Part shown: piece by piece, positions 1-57,196 of the stretch
How the letters are laid out: every line of letters begins with the position of its first letter
Position numbering within the stretch: the stretch's first letter is position 1
NCBI GenBank assembly: GCA_006226565.1
Contig: SBGO01000716.1
Coordinates: forward strand, 307-64,306
Origin: Deltaproteobacteria bacterium
GTDB lineage: Bacteria; Myxococcota_A; UBA9042; PHBI01
Reading direction: 5' to 3'
DNA: 64,000 bases
The notes under the pieces: generated by a model
Told to the model about the DNA's origin: nothing
Seen by the model: the letters and a program-made list of their open reading frames with translations, nothing else
Databases searched by the model: none
Program-made: the position numbers and the translations under genes

Positions 1-1258
1 GGTCGACGACGCCGCCGGCGACTGGGCCGCGCTCGGGGCGCACCGCGAGGAGCCCGCCCGCTACGGTCACGTCGGCCCGGCCCGCGACCCCGAGCAGCAG
101 GCCATCGACCTCCTCGGCCCCCCGGACTATTCGGGCGCGGCGCTGGCCGCCGTCGACGCCATGGGGGCCGAAGCGCTCATCCAGGCCCTCGCCGCGAGCG
201 GGCTGCAGGGCAGGGGCGGCGCGGGCTTCCCGGCCCACGTCAAGTGGCGCTCGGTGTGCGACCAGGCCGACCCGGTGCGCTACGTCGTGCTCAACGCCGA
301 CGAGGGCGAGCCCGGGACCTTCAAGGACCGCGAGGTCCTGCTGCGCCGGCCCGACCGGGTCGTCGAGGGTCTCGCCATCGCGGCGCGCGTGGTCGGGGCG
401 AGCGACGTCTACCTCTACCTGCGGGGCGCCTTCGAGGGCCCGTGGCGCGCCGTCGAGGAGGCGATCGCGCGCTTCGCGGGTCTCCTGCCGGACCTGCGAT
501 TCCACCTCCACGCGGGTCACGGGGCGTACATCTGCGGCGAGGAGACGGCGCTGCTCGAGGCCCTCGAGGGGCGCCGCGGGATGCCGCGCCTCAAGCCGCC
601 CTATCCGACGGAGCGGGGGCTGTGGGGCCGTCCGACGCTGGTCCACAACGTCGAGACCATCGCCTGCGTACCGGCCATCGTCCTCCGCGGCGGTGACTGG
701 TTTCGCGGCCTCGGCGCGACCGAGCCCGGGAGCAAGCTCTACTGCGTCAGCGGGCACGTGCGCCGGCCCGGCGTCTACGAGCTGCCCCTCGGCGTCACGC
801 TCGACGCCCTGGTCGAGGCGGCCGGCGGCTACCTCGGCACGCCGCGCGCCTTCAGCCCGGGCGGCGCCAGCTCCGGGCTCCTCCCGATGACGCTCCGGGA
901 CGTGCCGCTGGACTACGCGACGCTCGCCGGCCACGGATCCATGCTCGGCTCGGCGGGGGTCGTCGTCCTGAACGACGCCGCCGATCTCGTCGCCGCCGTG
1001 CGCGCCCAGCTGGCCTTCTTCGAAGCCGAGAGCTGCGGTCAGTGCGCGCCCTGCCGCATTGGCACCCGCTGGCTCCGGGACCGCCTCGAACGCTGGCGCG
1101 CCGCGCGGGCGGCGGGAGAGGACGGCGTGGCCCTGCTCGCGCCGGTGCCGGACGTGGCCTGGGAGCTCGAAGAGGGCTCCATCTGCGGCCTCGGCGTGGC
1201 CGCTCCGCTGCCCCTGACGAGCCTGATGCGACACTTCCCCGAGGAGATCGCCCGATGA
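1..1258 (+). CDS. NAD-dependent formate dehydrogenase beta subunit / NuoF-like 51-kDa flavoprotein; 5' end lies outside the window (reading frame is open from base 2)
   Basis: GRGGAGFP NADH/FMN-binding motif and the C-terminal 4Fe-4S motif ESCGQCAPCR typical of NuoF/FdsB. The stop overlaps the next gene's start as ATGA. Confidence 0.85.
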   Translation, partial: VDDAAGDWAALGAHREEPARYGHVGPARDPEQQAIDLLGPPDYSGAALAAVDAMGAEALIQALAASGLQGRGGAGFPAHVKWRSVCDQADPVRYVVLNADEGEPGTFKDREVLLRRPDRVVEGLAIAARVVGASDVYLYLRGAFEGPWRAVEEAIARFAGLLPDLRFHLHAGHGAYICGEETALLEALEGRRGMPRLKPPYPTERGLWGRPTLVHNVETIACVPAIVLRGGDWFRGLGATEPGSKLYCVSGHVRRPGVYELPLGVTLDALVEAAGGYLGTPRAFSPGGASSGLLPMTLRDVPLDYATLAGHGSMLGSAGVVVLNDAADLVAAVRAQLAFFEAESCGQCAPCRIGTRWLRDRLERWRAARAAGEDGVALLAPVPDVAWELEEGSICGLGVAAPLPLTSLMRHFPEEIAR

Positions 1259-4056
1259 ACGATCCCAACCGGTCCCGCGTGCTCACCCTGACCCTCGATG
1301 GCCTCGAGGTGCCGTTCTCCGAGGGCGAGACGCTGCTGGACGTGGCCAAGCGCGTGGGCGTCACCATCCCGACCCTGTGTCACGATCCGCGCCTCGAGCC
1401 CGCCGGTGTCTGCCGGACGTGCCTCGTCGAGGTCGAGGGCTGGCGTCGCCTGGCGCCGTCCTGCGCGACGCAGGCGACGGCGGGGATGCGCGTGACGACG
1501 GACAGCGCGCGGGTCGAGCGGCACCGGAAGGGCCTGCTCGGGCTCTACGCGACCGACCACCCGGGCGACCGGGCCGCCGCCGAGCGCCGCGGGCCGGACG
1601 AGCTGCTGGCGATGATCGACCGCTACGGCGCGCGCGACGAGGCGCTCGGGGCGCTGTCGAGCCTGCGGGCGGGGCGGCCCAAGGACGCGAACCCCTACAT
1701 CGACTTCGACCCCGAGGCCTGCATCCTGTGCGAGCGCTGCGTGCGCTACTGCGACGAGGTCGAGGCCGTCAGCGCCATCACCCTGGCCGGGCGCGGCGCC
1801 CGCACGACGATCTCGACCGCCGACGGGATCGGGCTGCTCGACTCGAGCTGCGAGCTCTGCGGGGGCTGCGTCGACACCTGCCCGACCGGGGCGATGGCCG
1901 AGAAGCTGCCGCTCACGCGCGGCCTCCGAGCGGAGCGCGAGCTCGCCAAGGTCCGCACCACCTGCAACTTCTGCGGGGTCGGCTGCCAGCTCGACCTGAA
2001 CGTGGACCCCGGGGGCCGCGACGGGCGAGGGCAGGTGGTCAAGGTGACGAGCCCCGCGCCGGGGACGACGACGAACGACGGCAACCTCTGCGTGAAGGGC
2101 CGCTTCGCCTACGACTTCCTGCACCACGCCGACCGGCTGACGGCGCCGCTCGTGCGGGGGGCGGACGGGCAGCTCTACCCGACGACCTGGGACGACGCGC
2201 TCAGCCGCGCCGCCCAAGGGCTCCTCGGCGTCAAGGAGCGGCACGGGGCCGACGCCCTCGGCTTCGTGAGCTCCTCGCGCTGCACGGTCGAGGAGAACTA
2301 CCTGGTCCAGAAGCTCGCGCGGGCGGTGTTCGGCACCAACAACGTCCACCAGTGTGCCGCCACTTGACACGCTCCGACGGTGGCCGGTCTGGTCACCACC
2401 TTCGGCGCCGGCGCGATGACGAACTCCATCGGCGAGATCCGTGAGGCGGACTGCCTCTTCGTCATCGGCTCCAACACCACCGAGGCCCACCCCATCATCG
2501 CCATGGAGATGAAGCGGGCGGTCCGACGCGGGGCGACCCTCATCGTCGCCGACCCGCGCGCCATCTGGCTCTCCTCCATCGCGACGCGGCACCTGCAGCT
2601 CCGGCCCGGGACGGATGTGTGGCTCCTAAACGCGATGGCGCACGTCATCGTGACCGAGGGGCTCTGGGACCGGGCCTTCGTCGAGACCCACGTCGAGGGC
2701 TTCGAGGACGTCGCCGCGGCGGTGGCCGCGTACACGCCCGAGGAGGCCGAGCGCGTCACGGGCGTGGCCGCCGAGGACATCCGCTGGGCCGCGCGGACGT
2801 ACGCGCAGACGCCCAAAGCCGGCATCTACTACACCCTCGGGATCACCGAGCACTCGCATGGGACGGACAACGTCTACGCGCTGGCCAACCTGGTGCTCAT
2901 GACGGGGCATCTGGGGCGGGCGAGCGCGGGGATGAACCCGCTGCGCGGGCAGAACAACGTGCAGGGCGCCAACGACGCCGGCGCGAGCCCCATCTTCCTC
3001 CCGGGCTACCAGCGGGTGGACGACCCGGAGGCGCGGGCGCGCTACGAGCGGGCGTGGGGCGTGCCGCTGAGCCCGACGCCGGGGATGAACCTGAACGTGA
3101 TGATGAAGCGCGTGGGGAGCGACATCCGCGGGCTCTTCGTCATGGGCGAGGACATCGTGATGAGCGAGCCCAACGTGGCGCGCCTCGAGGAGGGGCTGAA
3201 CCGGGTGGAGTTCCTGGTGGTCCAGGACATCTTCCTGAACGAGACGGCGCGCTTCGCCGACGTCATCCTGCCGGCGGCGGCGTTCGCGGAGAAGGATGGG
3301 ACGTTCACGAACTCCGAGCGGCGCGTGCAGCTGGTGCGGAAGGCGGTCGAGCCCCCGGGAGAGGCGCGTGCGGACTGGGAGATCCTGGTCGAGCTGGCCC
3401 GTCGCAGCGGCGGGGCTTGGGCGCTGTCGAGCGCGGCCGAGGTCTACGACGAGATGGCGAAGGATGTGCCGCGGTTCGCCGGACTCAGCCACGCGCGATT
3501 GGCGCGCGAGGGCGGGCTCCAGTGGCCGTGCCCGACGCCGACGCATCCGGGGACGCGCTTTCTGCACGAGGGCCGCATCCTGCGGGGCAAGGGGCTGATG
3601 GTGCCGGTGGCCTACCGGCAATCCCTGGAGCTGGCGGACGAGCTCTACCCGCTCGTCCTGTCGACGGGGCGCACGCTGTACCACTACAACGCGGCGACCC
3701 AGACGCGGCGCGAGTCGGGGCTCGCGGCCAAGCAGCAGGAGGCGTGGGTGGAGTTGCACCCGGCGGACGCCAAGCGGCGCGGCATCGGCGACGGCGACCA
3801 GGTCGAGGTGCGAACCCGGCGTGGCGCGGTGACGGTGCGGGCGGTCTGGTCCCGCCAGGTGCGCCGGGGCGCGATTTGGATGCCCTTCCACTTCGCCGAG
3901 GCCCGCGCGAACCTCCTGACCAACGACGCCGGCGACCCCGTCACCCAGACCGCCGAGTACAAGGTCTGCGCCGCCGACGTCCGCCGCCTGGACGCGCCCC
4001 CATCGCCGTCCTTCCTCCCGGGCAGCTTCTATCGCGACCGCGATCCCGAAGGGTAG
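1255..4056 (+). CDS. Formate dehydrogenase alpha subunit (FdsA/FdhF-type molybdopterin enzyme with a NuoG-like N-terminal Fe-S region); selenoprotein with an in-frame TGA at 2365..2367
   Basis: ORFs 1042..2367 and 2380..4056 are in the same frame and are separated only by a TGA. Its context CAAT-U-HAPTVAGLVTTFGAGAMTNS matches the E. coli FdhF Sec site CARV-U-HGPSVAGL...GNGAMSNA. The N-terminus carries 2Fe-2S and 4Fe-4S Cys clusters (CHDPRLEPAGVCRTC, CILCERCVRYC, CELCGGCVDTCP). The molybdopterin region aligns with FdhF through the C-terminus (YKVCA). Confidence 0.85.
2368..2410 (+). promoter_or_regulatory. SECIS-like stem-loop immediately 3' of the Sec UGA
   Basis: A 10-bp stem with one mismatch (ccgacggtgg at 2374..2383 pairing with ccaccttcgg at 2396..2405) closes a 12-nt loop, ccggtctggtca, that contains GGUC twice. 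The position directly downstream of UGA is as expected for a bacterial SECIS. Confidence 0.5.
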
Positions 4057-4119: not shown

Positions 4120-4443
4120 ATGTGTCGAAACATCAAGCTGCTGTTCAACTTCGAGCCACCGGCGACGGAGGCGGAGATCCGGGCGTCGGCGCTCCAGTAC
4201 GTCCGCAAGGTGTCGGGACTCCAGAAGCCGTCGGCGGCGAACCAGGCGGCGTGCGACCGGGCTGTCGCGGAGATCGCCGCCATCACGCGGCGTCTCCTTC
4301 TCGATGAGCTAGAGACCCGCGCCACGCCGCGGGACAGGGCGGTCGAGCGCGAGCGCGCGAAGGCGCGTGGACAGGACCGGGAGGTGCGCCTCCGCGCCCG
4401 CATCGCGGCCGAGAGCCGTCCGAAAGCACCCTCGCCGAGCTAG
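4120..4443 (+). CDS. DUF2277-family small protein
   Basis: N-terminus MCRNIKLLFNFEPPATEAEIRASALQYVRKVSG matches the conserved DUF2277 start. It follows the formate dehydrogenase alpha gene. Confidence 0.6.
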   Translation: MCRNIKLLFNFEPPATEAEIRASALQYVRKVSGLQKPSAANQAACDRAVAEIAAITRRLLLDELETRATPRDRAVERERAKARGQDREVRLRARIAAESRPKAPSPS

Positions 4444-5969
4444 CTCCATCCCCCCGCCGCGGCCCAGTCCCGGAACACGTGGACGGGCTCGCAGACTGCG
4501 TGCAGCCCGGTTTGACCGCGCTTGCCGATCTGGACGCCGTGGAAGCGGGTGCCTGTCTCGCGGGCGAGCTCGACGGAGCGGACGAGCTGCGTCGGAGCGG
4601 GCCACTCGCCGTCGCTGACGAAGACGACGTCGGCCTTCCGCCACGCGCTCTCCTCGAGTCGGGAGAGCACCCTGGTCAGGACGCCGACTTCGTCGTTGCC
4701 GCCGCCGAACGAGAAGCCCAGGAAGGAGAGCAGCCGGCCGACGCCGTCCGGCGACAGGTCGAGCTCGTGCTCGAGCACTTGGCCTGGTCCGCTGTAGGCG
4801 TAGAGGAAGCACCGCCGCTTCTCGGCGTGCGCGGTGCGCGCCGCCTCGAGGACGATGGCCTTCGCCACCTGCTCTGGGAGCCCGTGCATCGATCCGGATG
4901 TGTCGATGATCGCGATGATTGGTCCGCGCTCGGGCCTTGGTCGCTTCCGCTCGACCTCGACGTGGTCTTCGCGCGCCACCCAGGAACGAACCACCTCGAC
5001 ACCTTCTACGCGGTATGCCAGCAGGGCGCGCTCCGCCCGTCGTGCGTGCCAGGCGAGTCGGAGCTTCTGGTGCCCGAGCATCACCGCCTCGATCGGGAGC
5101 ATCCGGGCGATCTCGCCGCTGCGCTCGATGCCTCGAGTCTCCGCGGGAACGAGGGGTGTCGGGACCTCGTGAAGTTCCTCTTCGAGGCGGCGCACCGGCT
5201 CGAGGATCGTCTCGGCGACGGATGGCCCGTCGTCCGTGGCGTGGAGACGGCCGAGCGCGCGGACGATGTCGCGGAGCTGGGGGAGCTTCTCGACGAGGTC
5301 ACGGAGGCGCAGGAGGTCGAGCCATCCCGTGTGCTTGAGGACGCCGGTCGACAGGTCCCAGCCGCGGCCGAGCATCTGTCCGAGATCTCCGAAGACATCC
5401 GCGATCTCGGTCCACGCGCGGGCGCGCTCGCCCCACGTCGCCGTCATCTTCGGGTCTGCGGCCATGGCGCGTGCGGCGATCTCCCGCTCGGCCGCCGCCC
5501 GCAGCCGTTGTATGACGTCGTCGTCGAGCTGGACTGCACGGACGGCGCGCTTCTCGCGTCGCGCTCGCGCGGCCTCTTCCTCCGCGTGTCGGACGCGCTC
5601 GACCTCCTCGAGCTCGCGCAGCCGGTCGGCGACCTGGGAGCGAAGCTCGACGTCCTGGCGTCCGAATGCCTCCAGGATGTCGGCCATCAGTGCGTCGACG
5701 AGTTCGGGTTGGTCCCTGCAGAACCGCGCCAGCCCCATGTCCGACAGCGCTTTGCGAACAGGAACGTCGAGTGGTGCGTCGGGCCAGGTCCCGGGCGTGG
5801 GGAGCCGTCCGGCGAGGAGGGCGTCGTACCACGCACGCACGCCCTCGACGCGCTGCTCCAGGGTGCCGATGGGGAGCGTGACGACCGCCGGCACGACGTG
5901 CAGAGGGCAAACGTCGAGGAAGGCGTAGCGGCGCTCCAGCGCGCCAGCTTCGAATCCGGCCGCCATCAT
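4440..5969 (-). CDS. von Willebrand factor A (VWA) domain protein, ViaA-like partner of the adjacent AAA ATPase
   Basis: C-terminal half has the MIDAS motif IIAIIDTSGSM (DxSxS). Its start ATG overlaps the stop of the upstream ATPase gene as ATGA. Confidence 0.7.
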   Translation of the reverse strand: MMAAGFEAGALERRYAFLDVCPLHVVPAVVTLPIGTLEQRVEGVRAWYDALLAGRLPTPGTWPDAPLDVPVRKALSDMGLARFCRDQPELVDALMADILEAFGRQDVELRSQVADRLRELEEVERVRHAEEEAARARREKRAVRAVQLDDDVIQRLRAAAEREIAARAMAADPKMTATWGERARAWTEIADVFGDLGQMLGRGWDLSTGVLKHTGWLDLLRLRDLVEKLPQLRDIVRALGRLHATDDGPSVAETILEPVRRLEEELHEVPTPLVPAETRGIERSGEIARMLPIEAVMLGHQKLRLAWHARRAERALLAYRVEGVEVVRSWVAREDHVEVERKRPRPERGPIIAIIDTSGSMHGLPEQVAKAIVLEAARTAHAEKRRCFLYAYSGPGQVLEHELDLSPDGVGRLLSFLGFSFGGGNDEVGVLTRVLSRLEESAWRKADVVFVSDGEWPAPTQLVRSVELARETGTRFHGVQIGKRGQTGLHAVCEPVHVFRDWAAAGGWS

Positions 5970-7651
5970 CGACCTCGCGACGGCGTCGCCTCCGGCCTGA
6001 TCTGCAGAGTCTTCGGTTCGCCGTTGGCTGAACGTGCGTCTGGATTCTGCTCACGTGGGAGGCCGTCGAAGCCCTCGCGAAGCTTGGCGACGCGCGCCAG
6101 CAGCGTGTCGACCTCTTGTCGTGTGCGCGCGAGGGTTTGCGCCGCTGGTCCAACAAACTCTGGTGTGACCCAGAGGTGCTCGCGGATCTCGGCCTCAAGT
6201 GAATAGACGTGCGCGTGCAGTCGGTCGCTGTAGCTATCCACATCGGACATGAGCCCATCCAGCTCGCGTATGCATTGGTCGATGTAGAAACCCTTGTGGC
6301 GAGTCGGTTCGAGGAGCGGCAAGAGGCCAATATCCTCCATCAGCCAGTTGCTTTGGTCCGCGAGGTAGGCATCGCGTCCGGACCAGTGCGGGAACTCCTG
6401 CAAGCCGTAGTTGCGATCGTTTACGTAGAGTGTGTCGAGTTCATTCCGAGTGAACCCACGGCCACCGTTCTTCCGGTCGGTGACCTTTGTTCGGTTGTAG
6501 CTCCGCCCGTTCTCGTAGGCTTCGGTCGGAGCGAGGAACAACGGTTTCGAGTCACGGCGGGCCTGTGCCATGCCCTTCGTTTGCGTCGTGTGCTTCCCAT
6601 CCACCGCCTTGAAGAGGGGACGACCGCTGCTGTCCCGCATCTGAGACCGACTGTCCCTGTCCGCTTGGAGTCGCGCTTCCCAGGACACGACGATAGTTGT
6701 GAGGCGCGACGGATCCATTGCGGCGGAGGCGCCGACGCGCGCGGCGTACCAGTCGTAGGCCTTCTCCCGTGCTTCGGGGGCGTCCCACACGCAGTGCTGG
6801 AGCAGCCAGCAGTCCCAGATAGAGACCCGCGTTCGGCCGTTCGTCACAGCCGAGACTTGGAGAAGCTTCACGATCTTCCGCCATCGGCGGTCCGAGACCG
6901 GGATCTGTTCCGCGGCGCACCAGTCGCGGAGGTCGCAGAGCAGGGCGACGACGTCTTCCGGAACCTCGACCGCCTCAGCCGCCCCCTGAATCGTCTCGAG
7001 CTCGTGGCGGCTGAGCAGGAGGTCGCCCGGCACGTTGAGGGTCGCCTGGCCCCTCAGGCCGAGGAGAGCAGGGAAGCCGTCCTTGGACACCGGCCCGACG
7101 TGGAGCCGGAGCAGAAAACGGTCGAAGAGGGCGTCGAGCTCCTCGCCTTCGGGAAGCTCGTTGCTGGCCCCGATGACCGCGACGAGCGGCGTCCGCTCTC
7201 GAACGGCGCCGTTGTCGAACTCACGCTCGTTCAGGAGCGTGAGCAGCGCGTTGAGGATGGCGCTGTTCGCCTTGAAGATCTCGTCGAGGAACGCGACGGA
7301 GGCCTTCGGGAGATACGCGTCCGTCAGGCGCTCGTAGCGGTCTTCCTCGAGGCCCTTGATGGACAGGGGCCCGAAGAGCTCCTCGGGGACCGTGAAGCGC
7401 GTCAGCAGTCGCTCGAAGTACGTCGACCCGTCGAAGGCCAGATGAAGCCGGCGTGCGACGAGGCTCTTCGCCGTCCCTGGCGGCCCAACCATCACGAGGT
7501 GCTCGCCGGCGAGCGCGGCGAGCAGCGCCAGGCGGACCGCGACGTCGCGCTCGACGAGGCCCTCCGTGAGCGCATCGCGCAGCGCCCGCAGCTTCTTGAC
7601 GAGGCTCTCGACCTTCACGGGGGCCCGCGTCGTGTCCCGGGTGTCGTTCAT
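5966..7651 (-). CDS. MoxR/RavA-class AAA+ ATPase
   Basis: Walker A VMVGPPGTAKS, Walker B AFLDEIFKA and sensor VIGASNELP. The roughly 250-aa C-terminal region is not recognisable. Confidence 0.75.
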   Translation of the reverse strand: MNDTRDTTRAPVKVESLVKKLRALRDALTEGLVERDVAVRLALLAALAGEHLVMVGPPGTAKSLVARRLHLAFDGSTYFERLLTRFTVPEELFGPLSIKGLEEDRYERLTDAYLPKASVAFLDEIFKANSAILNALLTLLNEREFDNGAVRERTPLVAVIGASNELPEGEELDALFDRFLLRLHVGPVSKDGFPALLGLRGQATLNVPGDLLLSRHELETIQGAAEAVEVPEDVVALLCDLRDWCAAEQIPVSDRRWRKIVKLLQVSAVTNGRTRVSIWDCWLLQHCVWDAPEAREKAYDWYAARVGASAAMDPSRLTTIVVSWEARLQADRDSRSQMRDSSGRPLFKAVDGKHTTQTKGMAQARRDSKPLFLAPTEAYENGRSYNRTKVTDRKNGGRGFTRNELDTLYVNDRNYGLQEFPHWSGRDAYLADQSNWLMEDIGLLPLLEPTRHKGFYIDQCIRELDGLMSDVDSYSDRLHAHVYSLEAEIREHLWVTPEFVGPAAQTLARTRQEVDTLLARVAKLREGFDGLPREQNPDARSANGEPKTLQIRPEATPSRGR

Positions 7652-7928
7652 CGCGTTCCTCGTAGTGCTTTCGACGGCTCGGGGCCGTTCGGCTTGTCAG
7701 GACTCCAGAGAATGCCGTGCCCTCCGTCGACTGACCAGGAGAGCACGATGTTCAACGGCCGCAACGAACAAAGGCGTGTCGTGCTCGTCACGGGGCGGCG
7801 AACTCAGGGCGAGAATCGCCGAGCGGCATCTCGTCGTCGGCCTCCGCCTTCGCCTCCAGGCCATCGAGGAGTTTCCAAGCTGCGTCTCTCGCGTCCAGCA
7901 TCGCGCGCCGGGAGCTTTGACGTCTGGG

Positions 7929-9959: not shown

Positions 9960-10916
9960 TCACTCCACGAGCTGACGAATCCAAGCGCGAATGGTCGCGG
10001 TGGCCTCCTCCAACGGGATGCGCGGTCCCCAGAACATCGGGGCGATCTTCGCGTAGGCGCGCATCACGTGCTCGCGCTTGTCGTCGTCCTCGAGGACGAG
10101 TGACGGGGCGTCCGCCCTCGGAAGCGCTGCGATGTCGCCTTGCGCCAGCATGTCCTCGGCGAGTGCGAGCGCGCTTGTCTCGATCGCCGGAAGCTCGCCG
10201 ACGGCACGCACGATGCGGGCGGCGTCCTCGTAGTGGCGGACGAAGCTGTCGGCCTCGATCTGATCGCGCCCGTAGCGGCGCGCCATCGCGTCGAGCTTCT
10301 CGAGCAGCGTGACCAGCGGATGCACGCACCGGACGGCGCTCGGGCGATTGTCGAGATAGTCGACCAGCATCCCCTGGCGCTCGAGGTAGACGTGCACGAA
10401 GGACGTGATCGCCATCTCGACGAACGGCACGACCCGCGCACGCCCGACCTCGAAGCGCACGAACGGGCTCATCGCGCTTGGCAGGTCGCTGACGAGCGCG
10501 CCCGGGTAGTGGCCGAGGTAGTCCGCCGTTCGCGCGTACTTGTCTGGCCGCGCGGCGTCGAGCGACGCAGGCACCCCCGGGATCGCGAACGCATCGGCGA
10601 GGGCGTTGTAGAAGGCGCGGCGCTGGGCGACCCGCCCCTTGTGCGCGCTCGTCCAGCTCGCCACCTCCGGGAGGCTCACGACCGCGCCGCGCTCGATCAT
10701 CAGGTCGAGGTCCTCGGAGAAGCGCTCGATGAGGCCGAAGCCTTTCGAGAGGCTCGTCCCACCCTTGAACCAGACCTCGAGCCCGGTCTGGTGCAGCGCC
10801 CACAGGCAGTGGGTGACCCAGTAGTCCTTCTCGACCAGCGCCGCGTCGATGCCAGTCTCGCGGGCGACGAGCCGTAGCAGCTGTGCGAAGTCGCGGTCGT
10901 CGTGGACGAAGGTCAC
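9960..10916 (-). CDS. AbiEii/AbiGii-family nucleotidyltransferase toxin (DUF1814)
   Basis: VTHCLWALHQ...WFKGGTSLSKGFGLIERFSEDLDLM matches the AbiEii NTase core. The GTG start at 10916 overlaps the antitoxin stop as GTGA. The longer 490-aa ORF is an upstream extension. Confidence 0.8.
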   Translation of the reverse strand: MTFVHDDRDFAQLLRLVARETGIDAALVEKDYWVTHCLWALHQTGLEVWFKGGTSLSKGFGLIERFSEDLDLMIERGAVVSLPEVASWTSAHKGRVAQRRAFYNALADAFAIPGVPASLDAARPDKYARTADYLGHYPGALVSDLPSAMSPFVRFEVGRARVVPFVEMAITSFVHVYLERQGMLVDYLDNRPSAVRCVHPLVTLLEKLDAMARRYGRDQIEADSFVRHYEDAARIVRAVGELPAIETSALALAEDMLAQGDIAALPRADAPSLVLEDDDKREHVMRAYAKIAPMFWGPRIPLEEATATIRAWIRQLVE

Positions 10917-11497
10917 GCGGCAGCGGCCTCTGCGAGGGACGCCTCGACGAGCGCCCGCGTCTCCTTCGTGCCGTAGGCTTCGGCCATCGCCAAGAGCCGG
11001 CCTCGGTCCCAGCGTCCGGCGCGCAGCGTATCGACCAACGCCGCCCGCAGATCGCTCAGGGCAGCGCCTGCTGCCTCGTGATGCTGCAGCAGGTCGATGA
11101 CGAACCACTCCGGCTTGGGCGCGTCCGGGAAGTAGACGCGGCGCAGGATGAAGCGTCGCCCGTCGAGCGTGAACTCCCCCGTCCGCTTGGTGTTGTAGAC
11201 GAGCGTCGCGGCGAAGACGGCCGTCGAGCCGAGTCCGAGCGCGTTCCAGCGCGGTGGGCCGGTGACGAGGAACGGCGCGTCGTCGAGGAATGCCCGCAGC
11301 AGCTCCTCGTCCGCGGCGGGGGCCGGACCGAAACGGCTGGGCGTCGGCGCGTAATAGAGCCCATGCGCCGCCATGCGCAGCTTGCCCTCGTGGACCAGCC
11401 GCCGGGCGAGCCGCGTGGGGTTCTCTCCCCATCGTCGCAGGTCGCGGGTTCGGTACGCCCGTCCAGGGGCGAGGTTGGGTTCGATGGCAGCGCTCAC
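10913..11497 (-). CDS. AbiEi-family antitoxin / transcriptional regulator (type IV TA)
   Basis: About 190 aa with an N-terminal wHTH-like region. It sits immediately upstream of, and is translationally coupled to, the AbiEii gene. Confidence 0.7.
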   Translation of the reverse strand: MSAAIEPNLAPGRAYRTRDLRRWGENPTRLARRLVHEGKLRMAAHGLYYAPTPSRFGPAPAADEELLRAFLDDAPFLVTGPPRWNALGLGSTAVFAATLVYNTKRTGEFTLDGRRFILRRVYFPDAPKPEWFVIDLLQHHEAAGAALSDLRAALVDTLRAGRWDRGRLLAMAEAYGTKETRALVEASLAEAAAA

Positions 11498-11589
11498 GTC
11501 AACTCCGTATGAATTCTACCGGAGAAATCATACAGTCGTAGGTGGCCGGTGGCAAGGTGGACAACCACTGCCTCGTTCGAGCCGGGGGG

Positions 11590-12426
11590 CTACGTCCGTC
11601 GTTCCCGTGGCGGCGGCGCGCAGTGAGCGAGGATGACCTTCCAGCCGTTCCGCTTCGCCGCGGCGTCTCGAACGAGGCTGGCGATCTCGCCGGGCTCGAC
11701 TCGATCATCGCCGGTCCCGAAGCTGTCGCCGAGCTCGGCTGCGACCGCGATCCGCTCGCGCACTGTGGCCGCGCGCTCGATCACGCGGGAGTACGCTTCG
11801 CACGCGTAGGCGAAGTTCTCCCGCTGGCGGAAGTCGATGCCGAGGAGCCACTCACGGCGACGGGTCTCGGCGAGGCCGACCGAGCGCCGCTTGCAGTTGT
11901 GGAAGATGTGGGCCACCTCGTGGACCACGAAGTCGTCGAAGGGATCCTCCTCCTCGAAGTAGGCGGGGGTCACGAAGCAGGTCGTGTCCTGGCTCAGCCC
12001 GACGAGAAGTGGCGCGTCCTCGGCGAGCAGCTCAGCCCCGATTCCACCGAGATAGAGGTTGGCGAGGTTCCAGGCCGTCCGGTGCCAAGAGGTCTCGGAC
12101 AACACGTCACCGATGTTGGACGCCGTCAGGAAGACGACGGACCGCTCGACCAAGGCGAGCACGGCGTCCTGCTCTGCGCGGGGAAACAGACCGCGGATCA
12201 TCGGCTCGGTCTTCCGGCGTGTGAGGGACGTCACGTCGAGCTCACGCGTCGCATACGATTGGGGCCGGGAGCTGGCACGCCTCTGGACCTCCGCGACGAG
12301 CGCAGCCCTGAGGTCCTTGTGCGCCGCCCGCGAGCACTCGATGATGTCGCGGCCGGGCCACGCGGTGCCGAGCGTGTCGGTGTCGCCAGTCCGAAGGTAG
12401 CGTTCGATCTCGCTCGCGATGCTCAT
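11590..12426 (-). CDS. Hypothetical protein with an HExxH motif (possible ImmA/IrrE-like zinc metallopeptidase)
   Basis: The only recognisable element is HEVAHIFHN, resembling HEXXH of ImmA/IrrE. Confidence 0.35.
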   Translation of the reverse strand: MSIASEIERYLRTGDTDTLGTAWPGRDIIECSRAAHKDLRAALVAEVQRRASSRPQSYATRELDVTSLTRRKTEPMIRGLFPRAEQDAVLALVERSVVFLTASNIGDVLSETSWHRTAWNLANLYLGGIGAELLAEDAPLLVGLSQDTTCFVTPAYFEEEDPFDDFVVHEVAHIFHNCKRRSVGLAETRRREWLLGIDFRQRENFAYACEAYSRVIERAATVRERIAVAAELGDSFGTGDDRVEPGEIASLVRDAAAKRNGWKVILAHCAPPPRERRT

Positions 12427-12448
12427 CTCGGCGTCGTTCCTCGTGGGG

Positions 12449-12892
12449 TCAGAAAGGGATGTCGCCGTCGTCCAGCGTGTATGTCACCGCGGCCCCATTT
12501 TCGAGAGCGACGGGCTCGAGCTCGTCCCACGTCGTCCCGAAGGGGAAGTCGGCGGACGTGAAGTCCACGATGCAGGCGAACTCGTCGTCCCACACGGCCG
12601 CGTAGCCATCATCGTCCTGGTTCGTCGAGGTCTCCGCAGGCTTCTTCCGCGATGGACGGTTTCGGAGCGTCGTCCGGAGCCTCTCGACGTACGTCGGGTC
12701 GAGCGTGACTCCGAGCAGCTCGAGCTCCCTCAGGGCGCACCCGAGGTCGACTCCGAACCACGTCGCGTAGGTCCTGCACAGGTTCTTGCCCTGGTACTTC
12801 GGGATCCAGTGACGCGCTGACTGTAGGCGGGCGGGCCGCGCCATCCGCTTCCGCCGTGGCGGCAGGATCTGCTTCTTCTTTCGTCGCCCCAT
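12449..12892 (-). CDS. Hypothetical protein with a highly basic N-terminus
   Basis: N-terminus MGRRKKKQILPPRRKRMARPARLQ. No recognisable domain. In an operon with the HExxH gene. Confidence 0.4.
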   Translation of the reverse strand: MGRRKKKQILPPRRKRMARPARLQSARHWIPKYQGKNLCRTYATWFGVDLGCALRELELLGVTLDPTYVERLRTTLRNRPSRKKPAETSTNQDDDGYAAVWDDEFACIVDFTSADFPFGTTWDELEPVALENGAAVTYTLDDGDIPF

Positions 12893-13078
12893 CTCGGCCT
12901 CCCGAGCGTGACGGTAGCGCGCTTCGTCCCGACTTCGTCAAGCTCGGGAGCGGGCCGCAAAGCTTCGGGCCGGTGACGAGGCGTCGTCGTATCCGATATA
13001 GATGAGCAATGAGGTGCTTGGCGCCGGGAGCCGCGTCACGCGGTCGGACGACCGAGGCCCATAGAGGACCATGCAGCC

Positions 13079-14455
13079 GTGACCACCGATCCTACCGGAT
13101 CCTCCGACGGCGATGCGGTGGCTGTGACCGTCGCGGCTGACGGTCGGCCGGTGGTGCGGTGCGCGATCTACACGCGGCAGTCCGTGGCCCATGGCAACGA
13201 GGACCTCACGTCCTGCGACGTTCAGCGGGAGCGGTGCGGCTACTACGTCAGCGCCATGAAGTACGAGGGCTGGGTCCTGCTCCCCGAGCGCTTCGATGAC
13301 CTCGGCGTCTCGGGCGCTACCCTCGAGCGGCCGGCCCTCGAACGCCTGCGTTCCCTCTGTGTACAAGGGCGGCTCGATGTCGTCGTCGTCACGCGGCTCG
13401 ACCGCCTGACGAGGCGCATGGCGGACTGGGCCCGCCTCTCGGACTGGTTCAAGCGGGCCGGTGTCGACCTGGTGATTGTCGACGGGAACGCGGGCGCCAG
13501 CGGACCGCTCGCCAGCCTCGTCAACAACGTCGTCGCCAGCTTCGCCGAGTTCGAGCGCGAGCTCGTCAGCGAGCGCCAACGCGACGCACGAGGGCGGGCC
13601 CGCGCCCGCGGTCTCCGCACGGCCGGTCGCGTCCCCCTCGGCTACGCGTCCGATCCCAACACGAAGCAGCTCGTCATCAACGAGCGCGAAGCACCCATCG
13701 TCCGCGAGTTCTTTGAGCGCTCCGCTGCTGGCGAGTCGGGCGCCCAGATCGCCGCGTGGGCGAACGCCGAAGGTCACCGGACCAAGGTCCACGCAGGCAA
13801 GGGCGGCGTCCTGTGGACGGGCAGGGCGGTCCTCCAGATCCTGCGAAACCCGCTCTACCTTGGCCGCCGTTCCCACCAGGCGGCCACCGTCAAGGGCGTC
13901 CATGACGCCATCGTCGACGCCAAGCTCGCTGAGCGAGCCCTTGACGCCATCGACGCCCGCCGGACACGCAGCCCGAGCTCGCGCGGGCGGGCGCCGAACC
14001 TTGACAACGACCCCTGGATGCTTCGCGGCATCCTCCGCTGCGGCGGCTGCGGCCGCCTCATGACGACCAGCGCGTCGGCCAGGGTCACCCTCGCGAACGC
14101 CGACGACGTCCCGCGCTACTACCGCTGTCGCGGTGAAGTCGGCCGGCCGGCCTGTCGTCCCGCCGTCCAGGTCGCCGCTCATCGTGTCGAAGGCCAGGTC
14201 ATCAGCCGGCTGTGCCTTCCCCAGTCCGTGTGGACCGACAACCCGAGGGCGCGCGCCTTCCTCCGGCTGCTCGCCCCCGAGTGGCCGCGGCTCGACACCG
14301 CCACGCGGAACCGCCTGGTCCGCCGCCTCCTGTGGACCATCACCTTGCACCCGCACAGGCGCTTTGCGAGCCTGACCGTGGACGAGCTCGGCGCCGACGC
14401 CCTCATCGAGGAGAACCCCGGCCTCGCCGCCGGGTTCCCACCTCGAGGCGTCTGA
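13079..14455 (+). CDS. Large serine recombinase (resolvase catalytic domain, recombinase domain and zinc-ribbon domain)
   Basis: Catalytic motif VRCAIYTRQS with DVQRERC, and a C-terminal Cys cluster LRCGGCGRL...YRCRGEVGRPAC. Confidence 0.85.
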   Translation: MTTDPTGSSDGDAVAVTVAADGRPVVRCAIYTRQSVAHGNEDLTSCDVQRERCGYYVSAMKYEGWVLLPERFDDLGVSGATLERPALERLRSLCVQGRLDVVVVTRLDRLTRRMADWARLSDWFKRAGVDLVIVDGNAGASGPLASLVNNVVASFAEFERELVSERQRDARGRARARGLRTAGRVPLGYASDPNTKQLVINEREAPIVREFFERSAAGESGAQIAAWANAEGHRTKVHAGKGGVLWTGRAVLQILRNPLYLGRRSHQAATVKGVHDAIVDAKLAERALDAIDARRTRSPSSRGRAPNLDNDPWMLRGILRCGGCGRLMTTSASARVTLANADDVPRYYRCRGEVGRPACRPAVQVAAHRVEGQVISRLCLPQSVWTDNPRARAFLRLLAPEWPRLDTATRNRLVRRLLWTITLHPHRRFASLTVDELGADALIEENPGLAAGFPPRGV

Positions 14456-37887: not shown

Positions 37888-38154
37888 AACCCGCTTACCA
37901 CGGGCAACCGCCCGCGCTCAATCCGACCTGCCTGTCACGGCTCCGTTTCAGGCAAGGGCAGTCGGCTCCAGCACGGGGCACCACATGGCTGTCAGAAGGG
38001 GTGTGCTCCAAGCACGAACCAGGACGCCCACCTCCAACGCGTCGACGTGTGCGTGGTTCCGTCAGGCTCGGTCCCTGACGCGGGTCCCGGTGGTGATTGA
38101 CGTTCGTCCGGACCGCGTGCGACCGTCCTCTGAGAAACTCCGAGGCTGACCGCG

Positions 38155-39763
<1,609 letters not shown>

Positions 39764-39774
<11 letters not shown>

Positions 39775-40735
39775 GCTCGTCGCGGCCGCCCTGGGCTGCG
39801 TGGCGCTACTCGCCGCTACGCCACCATTTGCGCGGGCGGCCGCCCCACCCGACGCACCGCCACCGGCCGCAGTCGAGCGCCCCGTCCAGGACGTCATCGA
39901 TGCCGCCAAGGCCGCGTTCGAGGACGGACGTTACGAGGAGGCCTTCGCAGGCTTCGAGGAAGCCCAGAAGCGGACCGGACAGGTAGGAATCTTCTACCCG
40001 ATCGCGCGCTGCTACGAAGAGCTCGACCGGCTCGAGGAGGCGCTGGCAGCCTACGAGCGCGTCGCCGCCGCCGAGTCCGTCCCCGCGGCAGCGCGCGGCA
40101 AGGCGGACACAGCGGCGCGCCTCCTTCGCGACCGGCTCGCCACCGGGCGCCTGGTTCTGCAGGTGTCACCGTTCGGCGCGACGGTCCTCGTCGACGGCGC
40201 GGTCGTCGGCACCGCTCCCGTCGAGCCTCTCGACGTCGCGCCGGGCAAACACACGGTCGCGGTGCGCCGCGTCGGGTTCTCAACGATGACCCGGGACGTC
40301 GATGTGCAGGGCGCCCGCACCGCCACCGTCGTCGTGGAGCTCGCGGCGGCGGTCGAGAAGCCCGTCGAGCCCCCCGACGACGGCGCGTCGTTCTGGCCCT
40401 GGGTCACGCTCGGCGTAGGCGGCGCCGTCTCCATCGGAGGCGCGATCTCGGTGTGGTCAGGTGAGCAAGACCACCTCGAGATCACGCAGGCCGAGGGCTA
40501 CTCCGAAGGGCAGCTCGTCGACATGTCTCGGGACCGCGCCCTGGCCCTCGAGGCGAGCGGCGACGACAAGAAGCTCGTCGGGTGGATCCTCGTCGGCGTC
40601 GGGAGCGCGGTCATGGTCGGCTCCGCCGTCTGGCTCGCGTTGGACGCGCCACCCGAGGGCGAAGGAACGACAGTCGTGCCGACGGCGAGCGTGACCCCGG
40701 GCGGGGCGGCGCTCGGCGCCGTGGGGAGGTTCTAG
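39764..40735 (+). CDS. Secreted TPR-like/PEGA-domain protein with a C-terminal TM segment
   Basis: Signal peptide. PEGA-like VLVDGAVVGTAPVEPLDVAPGKHTVAVRRVGF. Overlaps the kinase stop. Confidence 0.6.
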
Positions 40736-41371
40736 ATGCGGGCTCTACGCTTGGGCCTCGTGGGCGTGATGCTGGTGCTCGCCAGCTGCACGAACCCGGA
40801 CCTGAACGGAAAGGTCTACCCGTGCGGCGAAGGTGGCGCATGCGGGTCTGGATACTCGTGCGTCGACGGGCTCTGCCGCCCCGAAGGCTGGACGCCCCCC
40901 GCCGACACGACCGAGGCGGATACGACCTCGCCCGACACTTTCATTTCCGACACGACCATGGTCGACACCTCCGATGACGACACCGTCGCACCGGACACGG
41001 TCGAGCTGGACACCGTCGTGGCAACCGACACGGTTGAGGTGGACACGACCGACACGGTCGAGGCGGACACCACCGACATTGTCGAGGCGGACACCGCCGA
41101 CACGGTCGAGGCGGACACGATGGTCGCAGATACAGTCGAGTTCGACACTGTGGCGGCCGACACCGAGATCGGCGACACGACGACGGTTGAGGACACGGTG
41201 GTTGGCGACACGACAGTCGGTGGGTGGCTCGTGCGTGAGGGGACGTGGCCCACCTTCACAGGCGAGAGCGTGTCCACGAGCGGCTGGCGTCTGGTCCCGA
41301 CAGGGTCCGGCCAGCGGTTCACCGGCTCGAGCGTGTCCACGAGCGGCTGGCGACTCACACCCACGCAGTGA
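40736..41371 (+). CDS. Lipoprotein with acidic tandem repeats
   Basis: Lipobox LVLASC. About ten DT(V/I)E(A/V/L)DT repeats. Duplicated C-terminal 20-mer FTGESVSTSGWRLVPT / FTGSSVSTSGWRLTPT. Confidence 0.6.
   Translation: MRALRLGLVGVMLVLASCTNPDLNGKVYPCGEGGACGSGYSCVDGLCRPEGWTPPADTTEADTTSPDTFISDTTMVDTSDDDTVAPDTVELDTVVATDTVEVDTTDTVEADTTDIVEADTADTVEADTMVADTVEFDTVAADTEIGDTTTVEDTVVGDTTVGGWLVREGTWPTFTGESVSTSGWRLVPTGSGQRFTGSSVSTSGWRLTPTQ
40960..41220 (+). repeat. Degenerate tandem DNA repeat with an 18-bp period (gacacggtcgaggcggac-type) encoding the DTVEADT repeats
   Basis: Repeated gacac(g/c)gtcga(g/c)g(c/t)ggac units are visible in the sequence. Confidence 0.5.
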
Positions 41372-41423
41372 GGGCAGCGGCGATGAGCTACGGCAGAGGC
41401 ATCGACGTCCGGGGAGGCGAGCG

Positions 41424-44012: not shown

Positions 44013-46510
44013 GCCAATCAGCAAGAGCACAAATGACGAAACACGCTGTTGGGTGGTCTCTTGCACTGTGCGCGCTCGTCGCTATCCCCAGCGTTGCTGA
44101 TGCTGCACCACCCGGACTCAGGTTCGGCGGCTATCTGGAGAGTTCCGCGGGGACACCGTACGGCGGTTCGGTGGATGTCGAGACGACACTCTTTGACGTC
44201 GAACTTGGTGGCGACGCGCTCTGGGGGCCCGTGGTTTTCTTGAACGTTCCCATCGACACGGGCCGCTTCGAGGTCGTGCTCGACGCCAGTACCCCGCTGG
44301 GTGACGCATTTGCGGGACTGGGAAGCGCGTACTTCGCCTTCCGAGTTCGTCCCGAGGGACAGGACTGGATTGCGTTGGAGGGCAGGCAACGCGCGGGTTC
44401 CGTTGGATTCGCGCACCAGGTGGCCGACTCCGAGCGACTCAGAGGCATCGACGGAGCGGAGTTCCTCTCGTCGTCCGAGCTGTCTGGGACCTACATCACG
44501 TTGACTGCGCTTGCACCCGTGGCGACGAGCGGCAGCTACGACGACCTCGCGAGTCGACCGAGCCTCACGGGCTATGCATTGACCAACAACCTCGCAGGCG
44601 TCTGCTTCTCCGGCTCCTACGACGACCTCGTGGACCAGCCGGACCTCGCCGTCTTCGTGACCTCCGATGCCCTCGCGACGGTGGCGACGAGCGGCGACTA
44701 CGGCGACATCTCGAGTCGACCCGACCTCTCCGTTTACGCGCTGACCGGCGACCTCGCGCTCGTCGCGACGAGCGGACAGTACGCGAATCTGCTCGGGAAG
44801 CCCGGTCTCAGCGCGCTCGCGCCGGTATCCTCGCTGGCCGCGGTGGCGATGACCGGGAGCTACTTCGACCTCCTGGGCGCACCCGACCCGGATGCGCTGG
44901 TCTGGCGTGATGGGAGCCGCGCGATGACCGGCGACCTCAACCTGGGCGGGCACGCGGTCCGGAACGTCGCGATCCATCCGAGCGCAGCGGCACCGACATC
45001 ACCTGTTGTCGGCCAGGGCTGGTTCGACACCACCTCGCGGACCCTGGAAGTCTACACCGACGGCGGCTGGAAGGCGCTGGAGGGGACAGCAAACCTCCCG
45101 AGCGACGGCCTCTCGACCGTGTCCAACGGCACGCTGAGCAACGTCTTCACCGACGGCGGCGTGAGCGGCGACGTCCCCCTCGACATTCCTGACAACTACC
45201 CGCCCGGCGTCGCTGCGAGCCTGACCATCGACGACAGCGGCACGCTCCGGTCCCTGTCCATCCACATCGCCATCACCCACCCCGATGCCACCGAGTTGAA
45301 GCTCGTCCTGACAGCGTCGGGCGGCCAGCAGTACACGCTCCACGACGGTGGCACCGGCACGAGCGGCGGTCTCGACGCCACCTGGCCTCCCGCTCCGGTC
45401 GTCGCCGGTGACCTCGGCGCGCTCGTGGGCACCTCGCCCACGGGCATGTGGACGTTGTCCGTCGCGGACTCCGTCTACTCTGGCGGCGCCCCCGGCGACA
45501 TCTCCGGCCAACTGACCGACTTCTCCATCACGTACGAGGTTCTGCGGTACGACGAGGTCGGCGTCACCGGCACGCTGACGGTCGGCGGCAAGGACGTCGC
45601 GGCGGAGCTTGCCGCCCTACGAGCAGAGGTCGAGCTACTCCGAGCCCGAGTTGCGCCATGTGGGCTCCTCCGATCCCCGTGCGCAACCGGATTCCGATGC
45701 ACCACACTCGGAACCTGCGTGAACGAGAGCGCGTCTGAAGCGTGGATTCCCGCAGGCGTGTTCTGGATGGGCTGCAACAGCGCCCAAGACGCCAACTGCG
45801 GATCAAACGAAGCACCTCAGAATGAAGTCGTGCTCACGTCTTTCGCGATCGACCGATTCGAGGTGAGCGCTGCAGACTACGCCGCGTGTGTGTCCGCCGG
45901 AGTATGCACTCAACCAGGAGGGGGCTCGGCAGCGACGTACGGGGTCGCGGGAAAAGAACAGCACCCTGTCAACCAGGTCACATGGGATAGGGCAGTCAGC
46001 TATTGCGCCTGGACCGGCAAACCCGCGGGTGCTCAGCGACTTTGTTCCGAGGCCGAGTGGGAGAAAGCTGCCCGCGGAGGGTGCGAAACGGCGTCCGGCG
46101 AATGCGCGCAGACCATGCGCGTGCACCCGTGGGATCGTGGGGACGAAACGCCCCCAACCGCGCCGGACTGTGATCTGGCGAACTTCGCGTCCGGCTCAAT
46201 CCCAGCCAGTTGCGAGCCCGATTCCTTCACGAGCGCGGTTGGCAGCCACCCCAGCGGCGCTTCGCCATATGGGGCCGAGGACATGCTCGGCAACGTGGCC
46301 GAGTGGGTCGCTGACTGGTACTCAGACTCCTACCCTGACACCGGCCCCCTCACGGATCCCATCGGGCCGACCACGGGCACACTGCGAGTAGTCCGAGGCG
46401 GAGATTTCCAGACGGCCCCCAACGCCCTCCGGTCTTCATCCCGGTTTGGATGGGATCCGGGTTCTCCTGCTGGCGACGTAGGCTTCCGCTGCTGTCGTAC
46501 CCTTCCCTGA
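44009..46510 (+). CDS. Paralog 2 of the tail-fibre-repeat/P-domain/FGE protein
   Basis: Same architecture as paralog 1. ATGA overlap with paralog 1. An alternative start is ATG 44033 (MTKHAVGW, signal-peptide-like). Confidence 0.75.
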   Translation: MSQSARAQMTKHAVGWSLALCALVAIPSVADAAPPGLRFGGYLESSAGTPYGGSVDVETTLFDVELGGDALWGPVVFLNVPIDTGRFEVVLDASTPLGDAFAGLGSAYFAFRVRPEGQDWIALEGRQRAGSVGFAHQVADSERLRGIDGAEFLSSSELSGTYITLTALAPVATSGSYDDLASRPSLTGYALTNNLAGVCFSGSYDDLVDQPDLAVFVTSDALATVATSGDYGDISSRPDLSVYALTGDLALVATSGQYANLLGKPGLSALAPVSSLAAVAMTGSYFDLLGAPDPDALVWRDGSRAMTGDLNLGGHAVRNVAIHPSAAAPTSPVVGQGWFDTTSRTLEVYTDGGWKALEGTANLPSDGLSTVSNGTLSNVFTDGGVSGDVPLDIPDNYPPGVAASLTIDDSGTLRSLSIHIAITHPDATELKLVLTASGGQQYTLHDGGTGTSGGLDATWPPAPVVAGDLGALVGTSPTGMWTLSVADSVYSGGAPGDISGQLTDFSITYEVLRYDEVGVTGTLTVGGKDVAAELAALRAEVELLRARVAPCGLLRSPCATGFRCTTLGTCVNESASEAWIPAGVFWMGCNSAQDANCGSNEAPQNEVVLTSFAIDRFEVSAADYAACVSAGVCTQPGGGSAATYGVAGKEQHPVNQVTWDRAVSYCAWTGKPAGAQRLCSEAEWEKAARGGCETASGECAQTMRVHPWDRGDETPPTAPDCDLANFASGSIPASCEPDSFTSAVGSHPSGASPYGAEDMLGNVAEWVADWYSDSYPDTGPLTDPIGPTTGTLRVVRGGDFQTAPNALRSSSRFGWDPGSPAGDVGFRCCRTLP

Positions 46511-46525
46511 ATCGTGGGTTGAAGC

Positions 46526-57138: not shown

Positions 57139-57196
57139 GAACGTGCGAGGCGGCTCGCCGCCATCGCCAGGGCTCGGAGTCCAGCGGGACCACCGC

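Follow-up and report, generated by a model that had tools for sequence, protein, structure and literature searches.

A predicted selenocysteine codon and a SECIS-type hairpin in an FdsA-type formate dehydrogenase gene on a deltaproteobacterial contig

Results

The fdhA gene and its operon

The stretch of DNA analyzed here, a 64-kb window of a contig assigned to a Deltaproteobacteria bacterium (SBGO01000716.1), carries near its 5′ end the gene for the alpha subunit of a formate dehydrogenase, fdhA, interrupted by one in-frame TGA. When translated in one frame, fdhA occupies positions 1255..4056 of the forward strand, on which all features of the gene and its RNA element lie, and consists of 933 codons followed by a TAG stop, with the TGA at 2365-2367 (codon 371) as its sole interruption. 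Mechanical prediction of open reading frames (ORFs) breaks the same region into two, 1042-2367 and 2380-4056. The original prediction, which was made from the letters of the window, held that these two ORFs are one gene, and the single frame, which shows a coding signature before and after the TGA, bears this out. The joined translation reads TNNVHQCAAT, the TGA codon and then HAPTVAGLVTTFGAGAMTNS, which is exactly the context that had been predicted, and the TGA is in frame with both flanking ORFs.

A first element of the original prediction that had to be revised was the start of the gene, which had been taken from the first ORF at 1042. The true start of fdhA is almost certainly ATG 1255 and not GTG 1042, based on three features: the ATG overlaps the stop codon of the upstream gene as ATGA (a 4-nt overlap), a Shine-Dalgarno sequence, GAGGAG, can be read at 1241..1246 on the forward strand, 8 nt 5′ of the start codon, and the relatives of the gene have the identical 4-nt overlap and N-terminal halves of 368-374 amino acids.

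Translation, Pfam domains and solved relatives identified the fdhA product as a NuoG-like, FdsA-type formate dehydrogenase alpha subunit. The Pfam domains occur in the order Fer2_4 (residues 8-84) and Fer4_Nqo3 (residues 147-214), which make up a NuoG-like N-terminal module, followed by Molybdop_Fe4S4 (E = 3.7e-12), Molybdopterin (E = 1.9e-73) and Molydop_binding (E = 7.6e-35). Its top relatives of solved structure, 9wxb_B (E = 3e-231) and Rhodobacter capsulatus FdsA 6tg9_A (E = 2e-227), are both alpha subunits of NAD+-dependent formate dehydrogenases; next come the tungsten enzyme of Methylobacterium and then FdhF of the hydrogen-dependent CO2 reductase, an F420-dependent enzyme and Escherichia coli FdhH. 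Directly upstream, at 2..1258 on the forward strand and in a frame that is open to the window start, lies the gene for a NuoF-like diaphorase subunit, FdhB, as identified by the Pfam domains Complex1_51K (E = 9e-42), SLBB and NADH_4Fe-4S. The equivalent gene in two relatives (L004 and L007) encodes 544-561 amino acids and also carries a 2Fe-2S_thioredx (NuoE) domain, and the gene in the window is probably a NuoE-NuoF fusion that has lost its NuoE part to the window edge. Given the domain order, the solved relatives and the adjoining NuoF-like gene, fdhA and the diaphorase gene probably encode a soluble formate dehydrogenase of the FdhAB/FdsABG type that is NAD(P)+-linked.

Position and conservation of the TGA codon

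Codon 371 (2365..2367) was assigned as a UGA selenocysteine (Sec) codon, and its residue as the predicted molybdenum or tungsten ligand, based on its alignment to Sec and Cys sites and on its conservation. In a pairwise alignment with E. coli FdhH (fdhF from MG1655; 42% identity over 666 amino acids) it aligns with Sec140, and it aligns as well with Cys386 of R. capsulatus FdsA, with the Cys of Thermoanaerobacter kivui FdhF and with the X (Sec) of the F420-dependent 9t1s_L. The TGA had been placed by the original prediction at exactly the catalytic Sec position, and in both the Sec- and the Cys-containing homologues it does fall on the residue in question. In addition, Cys8, Cys11, Cys15, Cys42, Lys44, Sec140, His141 and Arg333 of FdhH are all matched in the fdhA product, where the counterparts are Cys237, Cys240, Cys244, Cys279, Lys281, His372 (for His141) and Arg564 (for Arg333). 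We take the roles of these residues (catalytic His and Arg, the cysteines of the 4Fe-4S cluster, and Lys) to be those established for FdhH.

The TGA is conserved well beyond the window. A scan of GTDB, with one genome per species, yielded 80 further loci with 70-78% protein identity, the best match (78%) being in a Myxococcales metagenome-assembled genome (MAG), and these loci belong to Myxococcota, Planctomycetota (among them locus L066 of the cultured Saltatorellus ferox Poly30, complete genome NZ_CP036434), Latescibacterota, Acidobacteriota and Chloroflexota. The Sec-type gene cassette was also seen in a few MAGs labelled Paracoccaceae or Pseudohongiellaceae. In a search of protein databases, the closest matches (76-84% identity) were C-terminal halves of 547-563 amino acids that start just past the TGA position, while full-length matches were at most 63% identical, and 92 among the matches listed have Cys in the motif. 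On the contigs of the closest matches (from NCBI, JGI, ENA and Logan) an N-terminal ORF ends at the homologous TGA and is followed by the C-terminal ORF, and in all six relatives that were inspected the public gene calls break the gene at this same place, as the original prediction had expected of automatic annotation. Taken over all related loci that have the site (70-84% identical, from at least five phyla), the homologous codon is TGA in 86 of 86. Only the Cys-type relatives, at 61-63% identity, carry TGC at the codon, a control that comprises three loci only.

An explanation that had to be considered is that the TGA is a true stop, whether in a pseudogene, through an assembly error, or in a split gene with a second half that starts at GTG 2380. 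Gene callers do predict two ORFs, and GTG 2380, 12 nt past the stop, is a possible start codon. However, the same TGA is present in all 86 independent assemblies, which come from several phyla; the coding signature is strong in both halves, with a GC content at third codon positions (GC3) of 0.96 upstream and 0.95 downstream; and the proteins retain 70-84% amino-acid identity despite near-saturated synonymous sites. The gene is thus under selection at the protein level on both sides of the TGA. Codons +1 to +4 (His-Ala-Pro-Thr) sit between the TGA and the first possible downstream restart codon: among 74 distinct sequences they vary only at third positions, as coding sequence does, and it follows that they are translated in frame and that the TGA is read through. 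With a break at this codon the metal ligand would also be lost and cut off from His372, and GTG 2380 lies inside the conserved hairpin described below. We therefore regard a true stop as very improbable. A sequencing error, a pseudogene and a strain-specific nonsense mutation were excluded because TGA occurs in every one of the 86 loci and TGC is restricted to a distant group; the original prediction had itself allowed for an error, or for a Cys codon in otherwise identical strains, and neither was found, the TGC forms being separate in sequence. A split gene was ruled out together with error and pseudogene by the conservation of the TGA, the coding signature, codons +1 to +4 and the frozen synonymous sites of the hairpin.

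It is equally necessary to ask if UGA could be read here without any Sec system, either through genome-wide reassignment to Trp or Gly or through near-cognate suppression stimulated by the hairpin. A stable structure 3′ of a stop codon can stimulate read-through in some systems, which speaks for the second form of this idea. Nevertheless, TGA serves in the window as an ordinary stop more often than any other codon, ending 25 of 37 ORFs, including the gene directly upstream of fdhA by way of the overlapping stop. When all 64 kb were scanned for TGA codons that are in frame, flanked on either side by high GC3 and without a further stop for 80 codons, TGA 2365 alone showed such a two-sided coding signature. 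Moreover, neither Trp nor Gly can ligate a molybdenum or tungsten center, and the homologues always have Sec or Cys at this site. Genome-wide reassignment was ruled out by the use of TGA as a normal stop in those 25 ORFs, and reading of the codon without a Sec system is, taken as a whole, extremely improbable.

A hairpin in the register of the E. coli fdhF SECIS

Immediately downstream of the TGA is an RNA element with the features of a bacterial Sec insertion sequence (SECIS), which is described here with the U of UGA as position 1. A spacer of 11 nt (2368..2378), in the codons His-Ala-Pro-Thr, leads from the UGA to the apical hairpin, and its 5′ part is the 5′ arm of a weak lower helix. The apical hairpin, the proposed SelB-binding element, lies at 2379..2397 and was delimited by its fold, its register with the E. 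coli fdhF SECIS and its frozen synonymous sites. Its stem of 7 bp (GGUGGCC/GGUCACC) pairs 2379-2385 with 2391-2397, that is, G15-C33 to C21-G27, and encloses the loop GGUCU at 2386-2390 (G22, G23, U24, C25 and U26), in which G23 is at 2387 and U24 at 2388. Among the 74 distinct sequences G23 never varies, and 71 of them have U24. The motif GGUCUG occupies identical positions in the window element and in the E. coli fdhF SECIS. In the latter, a 17-nt upper stem-loop (nt 15-31) lies 11 nt from the UGA, and G23 and U24 are essential (PMC8659212); for bacterial SECIS elements overall the rule is a stem of 6-8 bp with a conserved loop G about 20 nt past the UGA (PMC4605307). With its 7-bp stem, its 11-nt spacer and G23/U24 in the loop, the window hairpin fits these published rules. 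The original prediction of a hairpin with a GGUC-containing loop after the TGA was therefore right as to the loop, which is of SECIS type, but its 10-bp stem following directly on the TGA is replaced by a stem of 7 bp set off by the spacer.

A possible lower helix has its outer limits at 2371..2408, where 2371-2377 (nt 7-13) could pair with 2402-2408 (nt 38-44), and in the window it is interrupted by a U9/C42 mismatch. Pair counts showed that five of its seven pairs never vary. Pair 9-42 is formed in 41 of the 74 distinct sequences, with U-A, C-G, G-C, G-U and A-U as variants, and pair 12-39 in 23 of the 74; taking pairs 9-42, 12-39 and 15-33 together, the share of sequences in which they are formed is 31-55%.

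Selection on the RNA is confined to the hairpin

In order to separate constraint on the RNA from constraint on the peptide, synonymous sites were compared over 420 codons around the site in an alignment of 85 loci, using the 138 four-fold degenerate columns in which the amino acid is at least 90% conserved. The mean third-position entropy over these 138 sites was 1.35 bits. Only five of them fell below 0.4 bits, and these five are codons +5 to +9 (Val-Ala-Gly-Leu-Val), with 0 to 0.25 bits, which correspond to the apical hairpin; the synonymous sites that immediately flank the hairpin codons had 1.6-1.9 bits. Within the stem, pair 21-27 is C-G in 71 distinct sequences, G-C in three and unpaired in none, a clean compensatory switch. 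In a 51-nt alignment (A1), the covariation score was 0.094 versus 0.052 ± 0.005 for shuffles, was reached in none of 500 shuffles and exceeded that of all slid registers. Consistent with a constraint that acts on the RNA, the three Cys-type relatives encode the peptide Val-Ala-Gly-Leu with three different codon sets, and the GGUCU hairpin is kept in only one of the three. Since synonymous sites are frozen in the hairpin only, pair 21-27 switches as a pair and the codons vary in the Cys-type relatives, there is clear selection at the RNA level, beyond the selection on the peptide, that is confined to the hairpin.

The Cys-type locus that keeps the hairpin, a TGC homologue with 61% identity (L093:3001-5724), retains GUGGCU-GGUCU-GGCCAU at the SECIS position. 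It looks like the remnant of a SECIS left after a conversion of Sec to Cys, and the other two Cys-type loci have lost theirs. Remnant SECIS-like structures after Sec-to-Cys conversions have been reported for FdhA (PMC1794560).

The covariance model of Rfam SECIS_3 (RF01989) matched the forward strand of the window at 2362..2420 with 46.2 bits (E = 6e-10, model positions 1-59 of 59). Beside the frozen synonymous sites and the switch of pair 21-27, this full-length match is a further sign that the hairpin is not a chance structure, although its score is below the gathering score. No Rfam family matched the window at gathering thresholds, and SECIS_3 was recovered in a permissive scan only. Among nine Sec-type relatives that were scanned, eight matched SECIS_3 (35-49 bits, all below 63), and there was no match in the two Cys-type loci scanned.

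Decoding of codon 371

We consider it highly probable that codon 371 is decoded as Sec by the standard SelB/SECIS route and that the residue is the molybdenum or tungsten ligand of an NAD(P)+-linked formate dehydrogenase. In the mechanism that we propose, fdhA would provide the catalytic alpha subunit of a soluble, NAD(P)+-linked enzyme that contains molybdenum or tungsten, and would be co-transcribed with the NuoE/F-like diaphorase subunit. When the ribosome arrives at the UGA, the mRNA hairpin at 2379-2397, 11 nt downstream, would offer the apical-loop nucleotides G23 and U24; SelB would bind the hairpin through its C-terminal winged-helix domains, and Sec-tRNA(Sec) would be brought, against competition from release factor 2, to the A site. 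Sec371 would then ligate the metal of the bis-pyranopterin guanine dinucleotide cofactor beside His372. The binding of SelB, the insertion of selenium, the role of residue 371 as metal ligand and NAD(P)+ as the acceptor are all proposed by analogy with established bacterial Sec decoding, and the predicted activity, formate:NAD(P)+ oxidoreductase, follows from the relatives of the protein.

Several observations weigh against this assignment. First, the original prediction had looked to folding of the region past the TGA for support, and while the hairpin was found, the minimum free energy of -19.2 kcal/mol is no better than chance, with a mean of -19.8 kcal/mol for shuffles (z = 0.21); because shuffles of a sequence with 69% GC fold equally well, folding energy is uninformative for this hairpin. 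Second, the relatives share ancestry, so that statistics based on shuffles overstate the significance of the covariation. Third, the lower helix is supported only in part, to a weak to moderate degree. Fourth, the bulged U17 that SelB of E. coli requires is absent: U17 is invariant, is predicted to pair with A31 in the window, and a U17-A31 or U17-G31 pair is predicted in all 74 distinct sequences. The U17 rule was defined for E. coli, however, and other SelB proteins may differ in their need for the bulge. Fifth, the SECIS_3 score in the window is below the gathering score of 63. Finally, neither selA, selB, selD nor tRNA-Sec was found in the 64-kb window or within approximately 10 kb of the related loci.

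The negative result for the sel genes derives from several searches. ARAGORN detected no tRNA in the window and, in 60 related loci, no tRNA-Sec but only one tRNA-Ser(UGA) and one tRNA-Arg. When SelA, SelB and SelD of E. coli were compared by tblastn with the window and the related loci, no match reached E ≤ 1e-5, and Pfam scans of approximately 45 window ORFs identified no Sel domains. Since none of these genes occurs in the window or in the approximately 10 kb on either side of the related loci, sel genes are unlinked to this fdhA clade. There is precedent for such an arrangement in a planctomycete that has a selenoprotein fdhA in an operon with nuoEF and the full set of Sec-insertion genes elsewhere in its genome (PMC4807772).

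A different outcome of the same machinery was also considered, in which the SECIS and a SelB-type factor insert Cys, wholly or facultatively, either through a selC* tRNA-Cys(UCA) with SelB* or through Cys-tRNA(Sec) under selenium limitation. The codon, the hairpin and the conservation of both fit the insertion of Cys as well as that of Sec, and the closest solved relatives function with Cys as the ligand, as FdsA does with Cys386. Furthermore, selC* tRNA-Cys(UCA) with an adjacent selB* is known and, in a reporter, inserts Cys at an opal Sec codon (PMC5389517). On the other hand, selC* has been described from anaerobic Firmicutes, Thermodesulfobacteria, Nitrospirae and Deltaproteobacteria, and the isolate genomes that have it were all found to have a complete Sec apparatus as well (PMC5389517), which implies that it would add to Sec decoding and not replace it. 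A lineage that inserted only Cys would be expected to swap TGA for TGC, as the Cys-type group did, and none of the 86 loci has done so. Also, the window and the flanks of the relatives yielded no tRNA-Cys(UCA). The insertion of Cys at codon 371 is accordingly quite improbable, and decoding as Sec remains our preferred interpretation.

Comparison with known systems

The fdhA product and its element share several features with E. coli FdhH and fdhF. In both, UGA at the homologous active-site codon is followed by a His codon, and the 4Fe-4S cysteines, Lys44 and Arg333 of FdhH are conserved; both SECIS elements lie inside the coding sequence, with an 11-nt spacer, a stem that starts at nt 15, G23/U24 in the loop and the same Val-Ala-Gly-Leu peptide. 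In contrast to FdhH, however, the window protein has an extra NuoG-like N-terminal module of approximately 230 amino acids with 2Fe-2S and 4Fe-4S domains, and its partner is a NuoE/F-like subunit, whereas that of FdhH is hydrogenase 3. The hairpins differ as well: the apical stem of the E. coli element is 5 bp, with U17 bulged and a GGUC loop, and that of the window element is 7 uninterrupted bp, with a 5-nt GGUCU loop and a U17 for which pairing is predicted.

The best full-length structural relatives are FdsABG (R. capsulatus FdsA, 6tg9/6tga; 9wxb) and Methylobacterium FDH1 (7e5z, 7vw6), with E values of 3e-231 to 2e-203 over residues 8-917; the alignment with FdsA covers window residues 8-915. 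They share with the window the domain order and a NuoF-like partner encoded next door. R. capsulatus FdsA differs in having Cys386 at the ligand position, where the window has UGA, and relative to FdsABG the NuoE- and NuoF-like parts appear to be fused in one upstream gene (as judged from the relatives L004 and L007) and no FdsC/FdhD or FdsD gene is visible 3′ in the window.

In gene arrangement, the closest parallel is with the planctomycete "P1" and Plesiocystis pacifica SIR-1, a myxobacterium, in which nuoE/F-like genes are followed by a selenoprotein fdhA, the Sec-insertion genes are unlinked, the taxa are likewise Planctomycetota and Myxococcota, and transfer of the conserved nuoEF-fdhA operon between phyla was inferred (PMC4807772). 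Going by the description given there, the window fdhA would belong to the same clade as those of "P1" and P. pacifica, and the present survey extends that clade to MAGs of Latescibacterota, Acidobacteriota and Chloroflexota.

With regard to Rfam SECIS_3, the window match is specific, covers the full model length and starts at the UGA, but the window loop is GGUCU where the model has an AGUCU region, and the SECIS_3 consensus, by our reading, encodes U-H-G-P-T-V-A-S-L-A-P-T-F-G, the context of FdnG/FdoG-type enzymes. Because the scores (35-49 bits) are below the gathering score, the window element is best described as a relative of the SECIS_3 family and not, by threshold, as a member.

Genes surrounding the fdh operon

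Directly after fdhA, at 4120-4443, is a DUF2277 gene, and the identical protein is encoded at the same position on a Logan contig (L002). There are no FdhD/FdsC, FdsD or molybdenum-cofactor genes 3′ of fdhA here, in contrast to the Cys-type relatives, which have FdhD upstream and MoaA-like genes downstream. Just 3′ of the operon, on the opposite strand at 4443-7696, a MoxR-type AAA+ ATPase (bpMoxR, AAA_5 and AAA_lid_8) adjoins a 536-amino-acid protein that has no Pfam match.

From approximately 10 kb on, the window consists mainly of mobile and defence genes, and the GC content drops from 0.75 over fdh to 0.63-0.70 in the mobile regions (9963-14452 and 52904-64000). The first of these, beside the fdh operon, encodes an AbiEii toxin and a large serine recombinase (13013-14452). 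The second contains a GpA-type terminase large subunit (52904-54955), an N6/N4 DNA methylase and a 1115-amino-acid CHC2-primase-like protein, and it ends with DUF2924 and a second serine recombinase (63476 onward) that is cut by the window end. Both regions show signs of being integrated mobile elements.

Between them lies a dense anti-phage defence island (15032-37917). It encodes a 1221-amino-acid TIR-SLOG-CHAT protein without a PADLOC match, two tandem ThsB-like TIR proteins, a 1894-amino-acid DruE-like helicase with an MZB/DUF1998 domain, a Schlafen/AlbA_2 protein, a GmrSD/HEC-05 nuclease, a 1581-amino-acid DrmMI-like Eco57I-type methylase and a DrmD-like SNF2 helicase. Druantia-like and DISARM-like parts are mixed in the island and no single canonical system fits. 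The island is followed, at 38134-49132, by a Ser/Thr protein kinase, a PEGA-domain protein and three tandem paralogues of approximately 850-870 amino acids that end in an FGE-sulfatase domain, one of which also has a proprotein-convertase P domain.

Discussion

The UGA codon and hairpin of fdhA add one more case to a textbook feature, and the type of operon that holds them has already been described; the current understanding of Sec decoding is unchanged by them. What is mildly notable is that the core of the SECIS is conserved nearly letter for letter across at least five phyla, that U17 is apparently paired in it and that Rfam finds this subtype only below its threshold. The 85-locus data set offers a clean example of constraint at the RNA level within a coding sequence, and SECIS models for FdsA-type enzymes could be improved with it.

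The Sec-type nuoEF-fdhA cassettes of the 80 GTDB loci (L010-L089) are far more alike, at 70-78% protein identity, than are their host species, and a likeness of the cassette beyond that of the species suggests repeated horizontal transfer. A stronger form of this idea, which we offer as speculation and think rather unlikely to hold, is that the cassette is a recently and repeatedly transferred module whose 15-nt SECIS core, GUGGCCGGUCUGGUC, has been kept almost unchanged across at least five phyla. If that were true, SelB proteins that differ greatly from one another would recognize a single near-universal RNA signal without the U17 bulge required in E. coli, and the cassette could enter any Sec-competent host. 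A variant of this idea that is less likely still is that some hosts decode the site facultatively as Cys by a selC*-type tRNA.

The value of the finding is mainly practical: in the annotation of the window, the coding sequence of fdhA should be a join of 1255-2364 with 2368-4056 that carries a transl_except for Sec at 2365-2367. If the UGA is not recoded, fdhA appears in annotations as fragments of 370 and approximately 560 amino acids, and such a split hides a complete formate dehydrogenase or CO2 reductase, one that is probably highly active, as well as the dependence of its host on selenium. FdhA is the most widespread of the bacterial selenoproteins (PMC1794560, PMC5029168) and the one that most often maintains the Sec trait (PMC1794560), and for the latter reason the source organism of the window is likely to be a user of selenocysteine.

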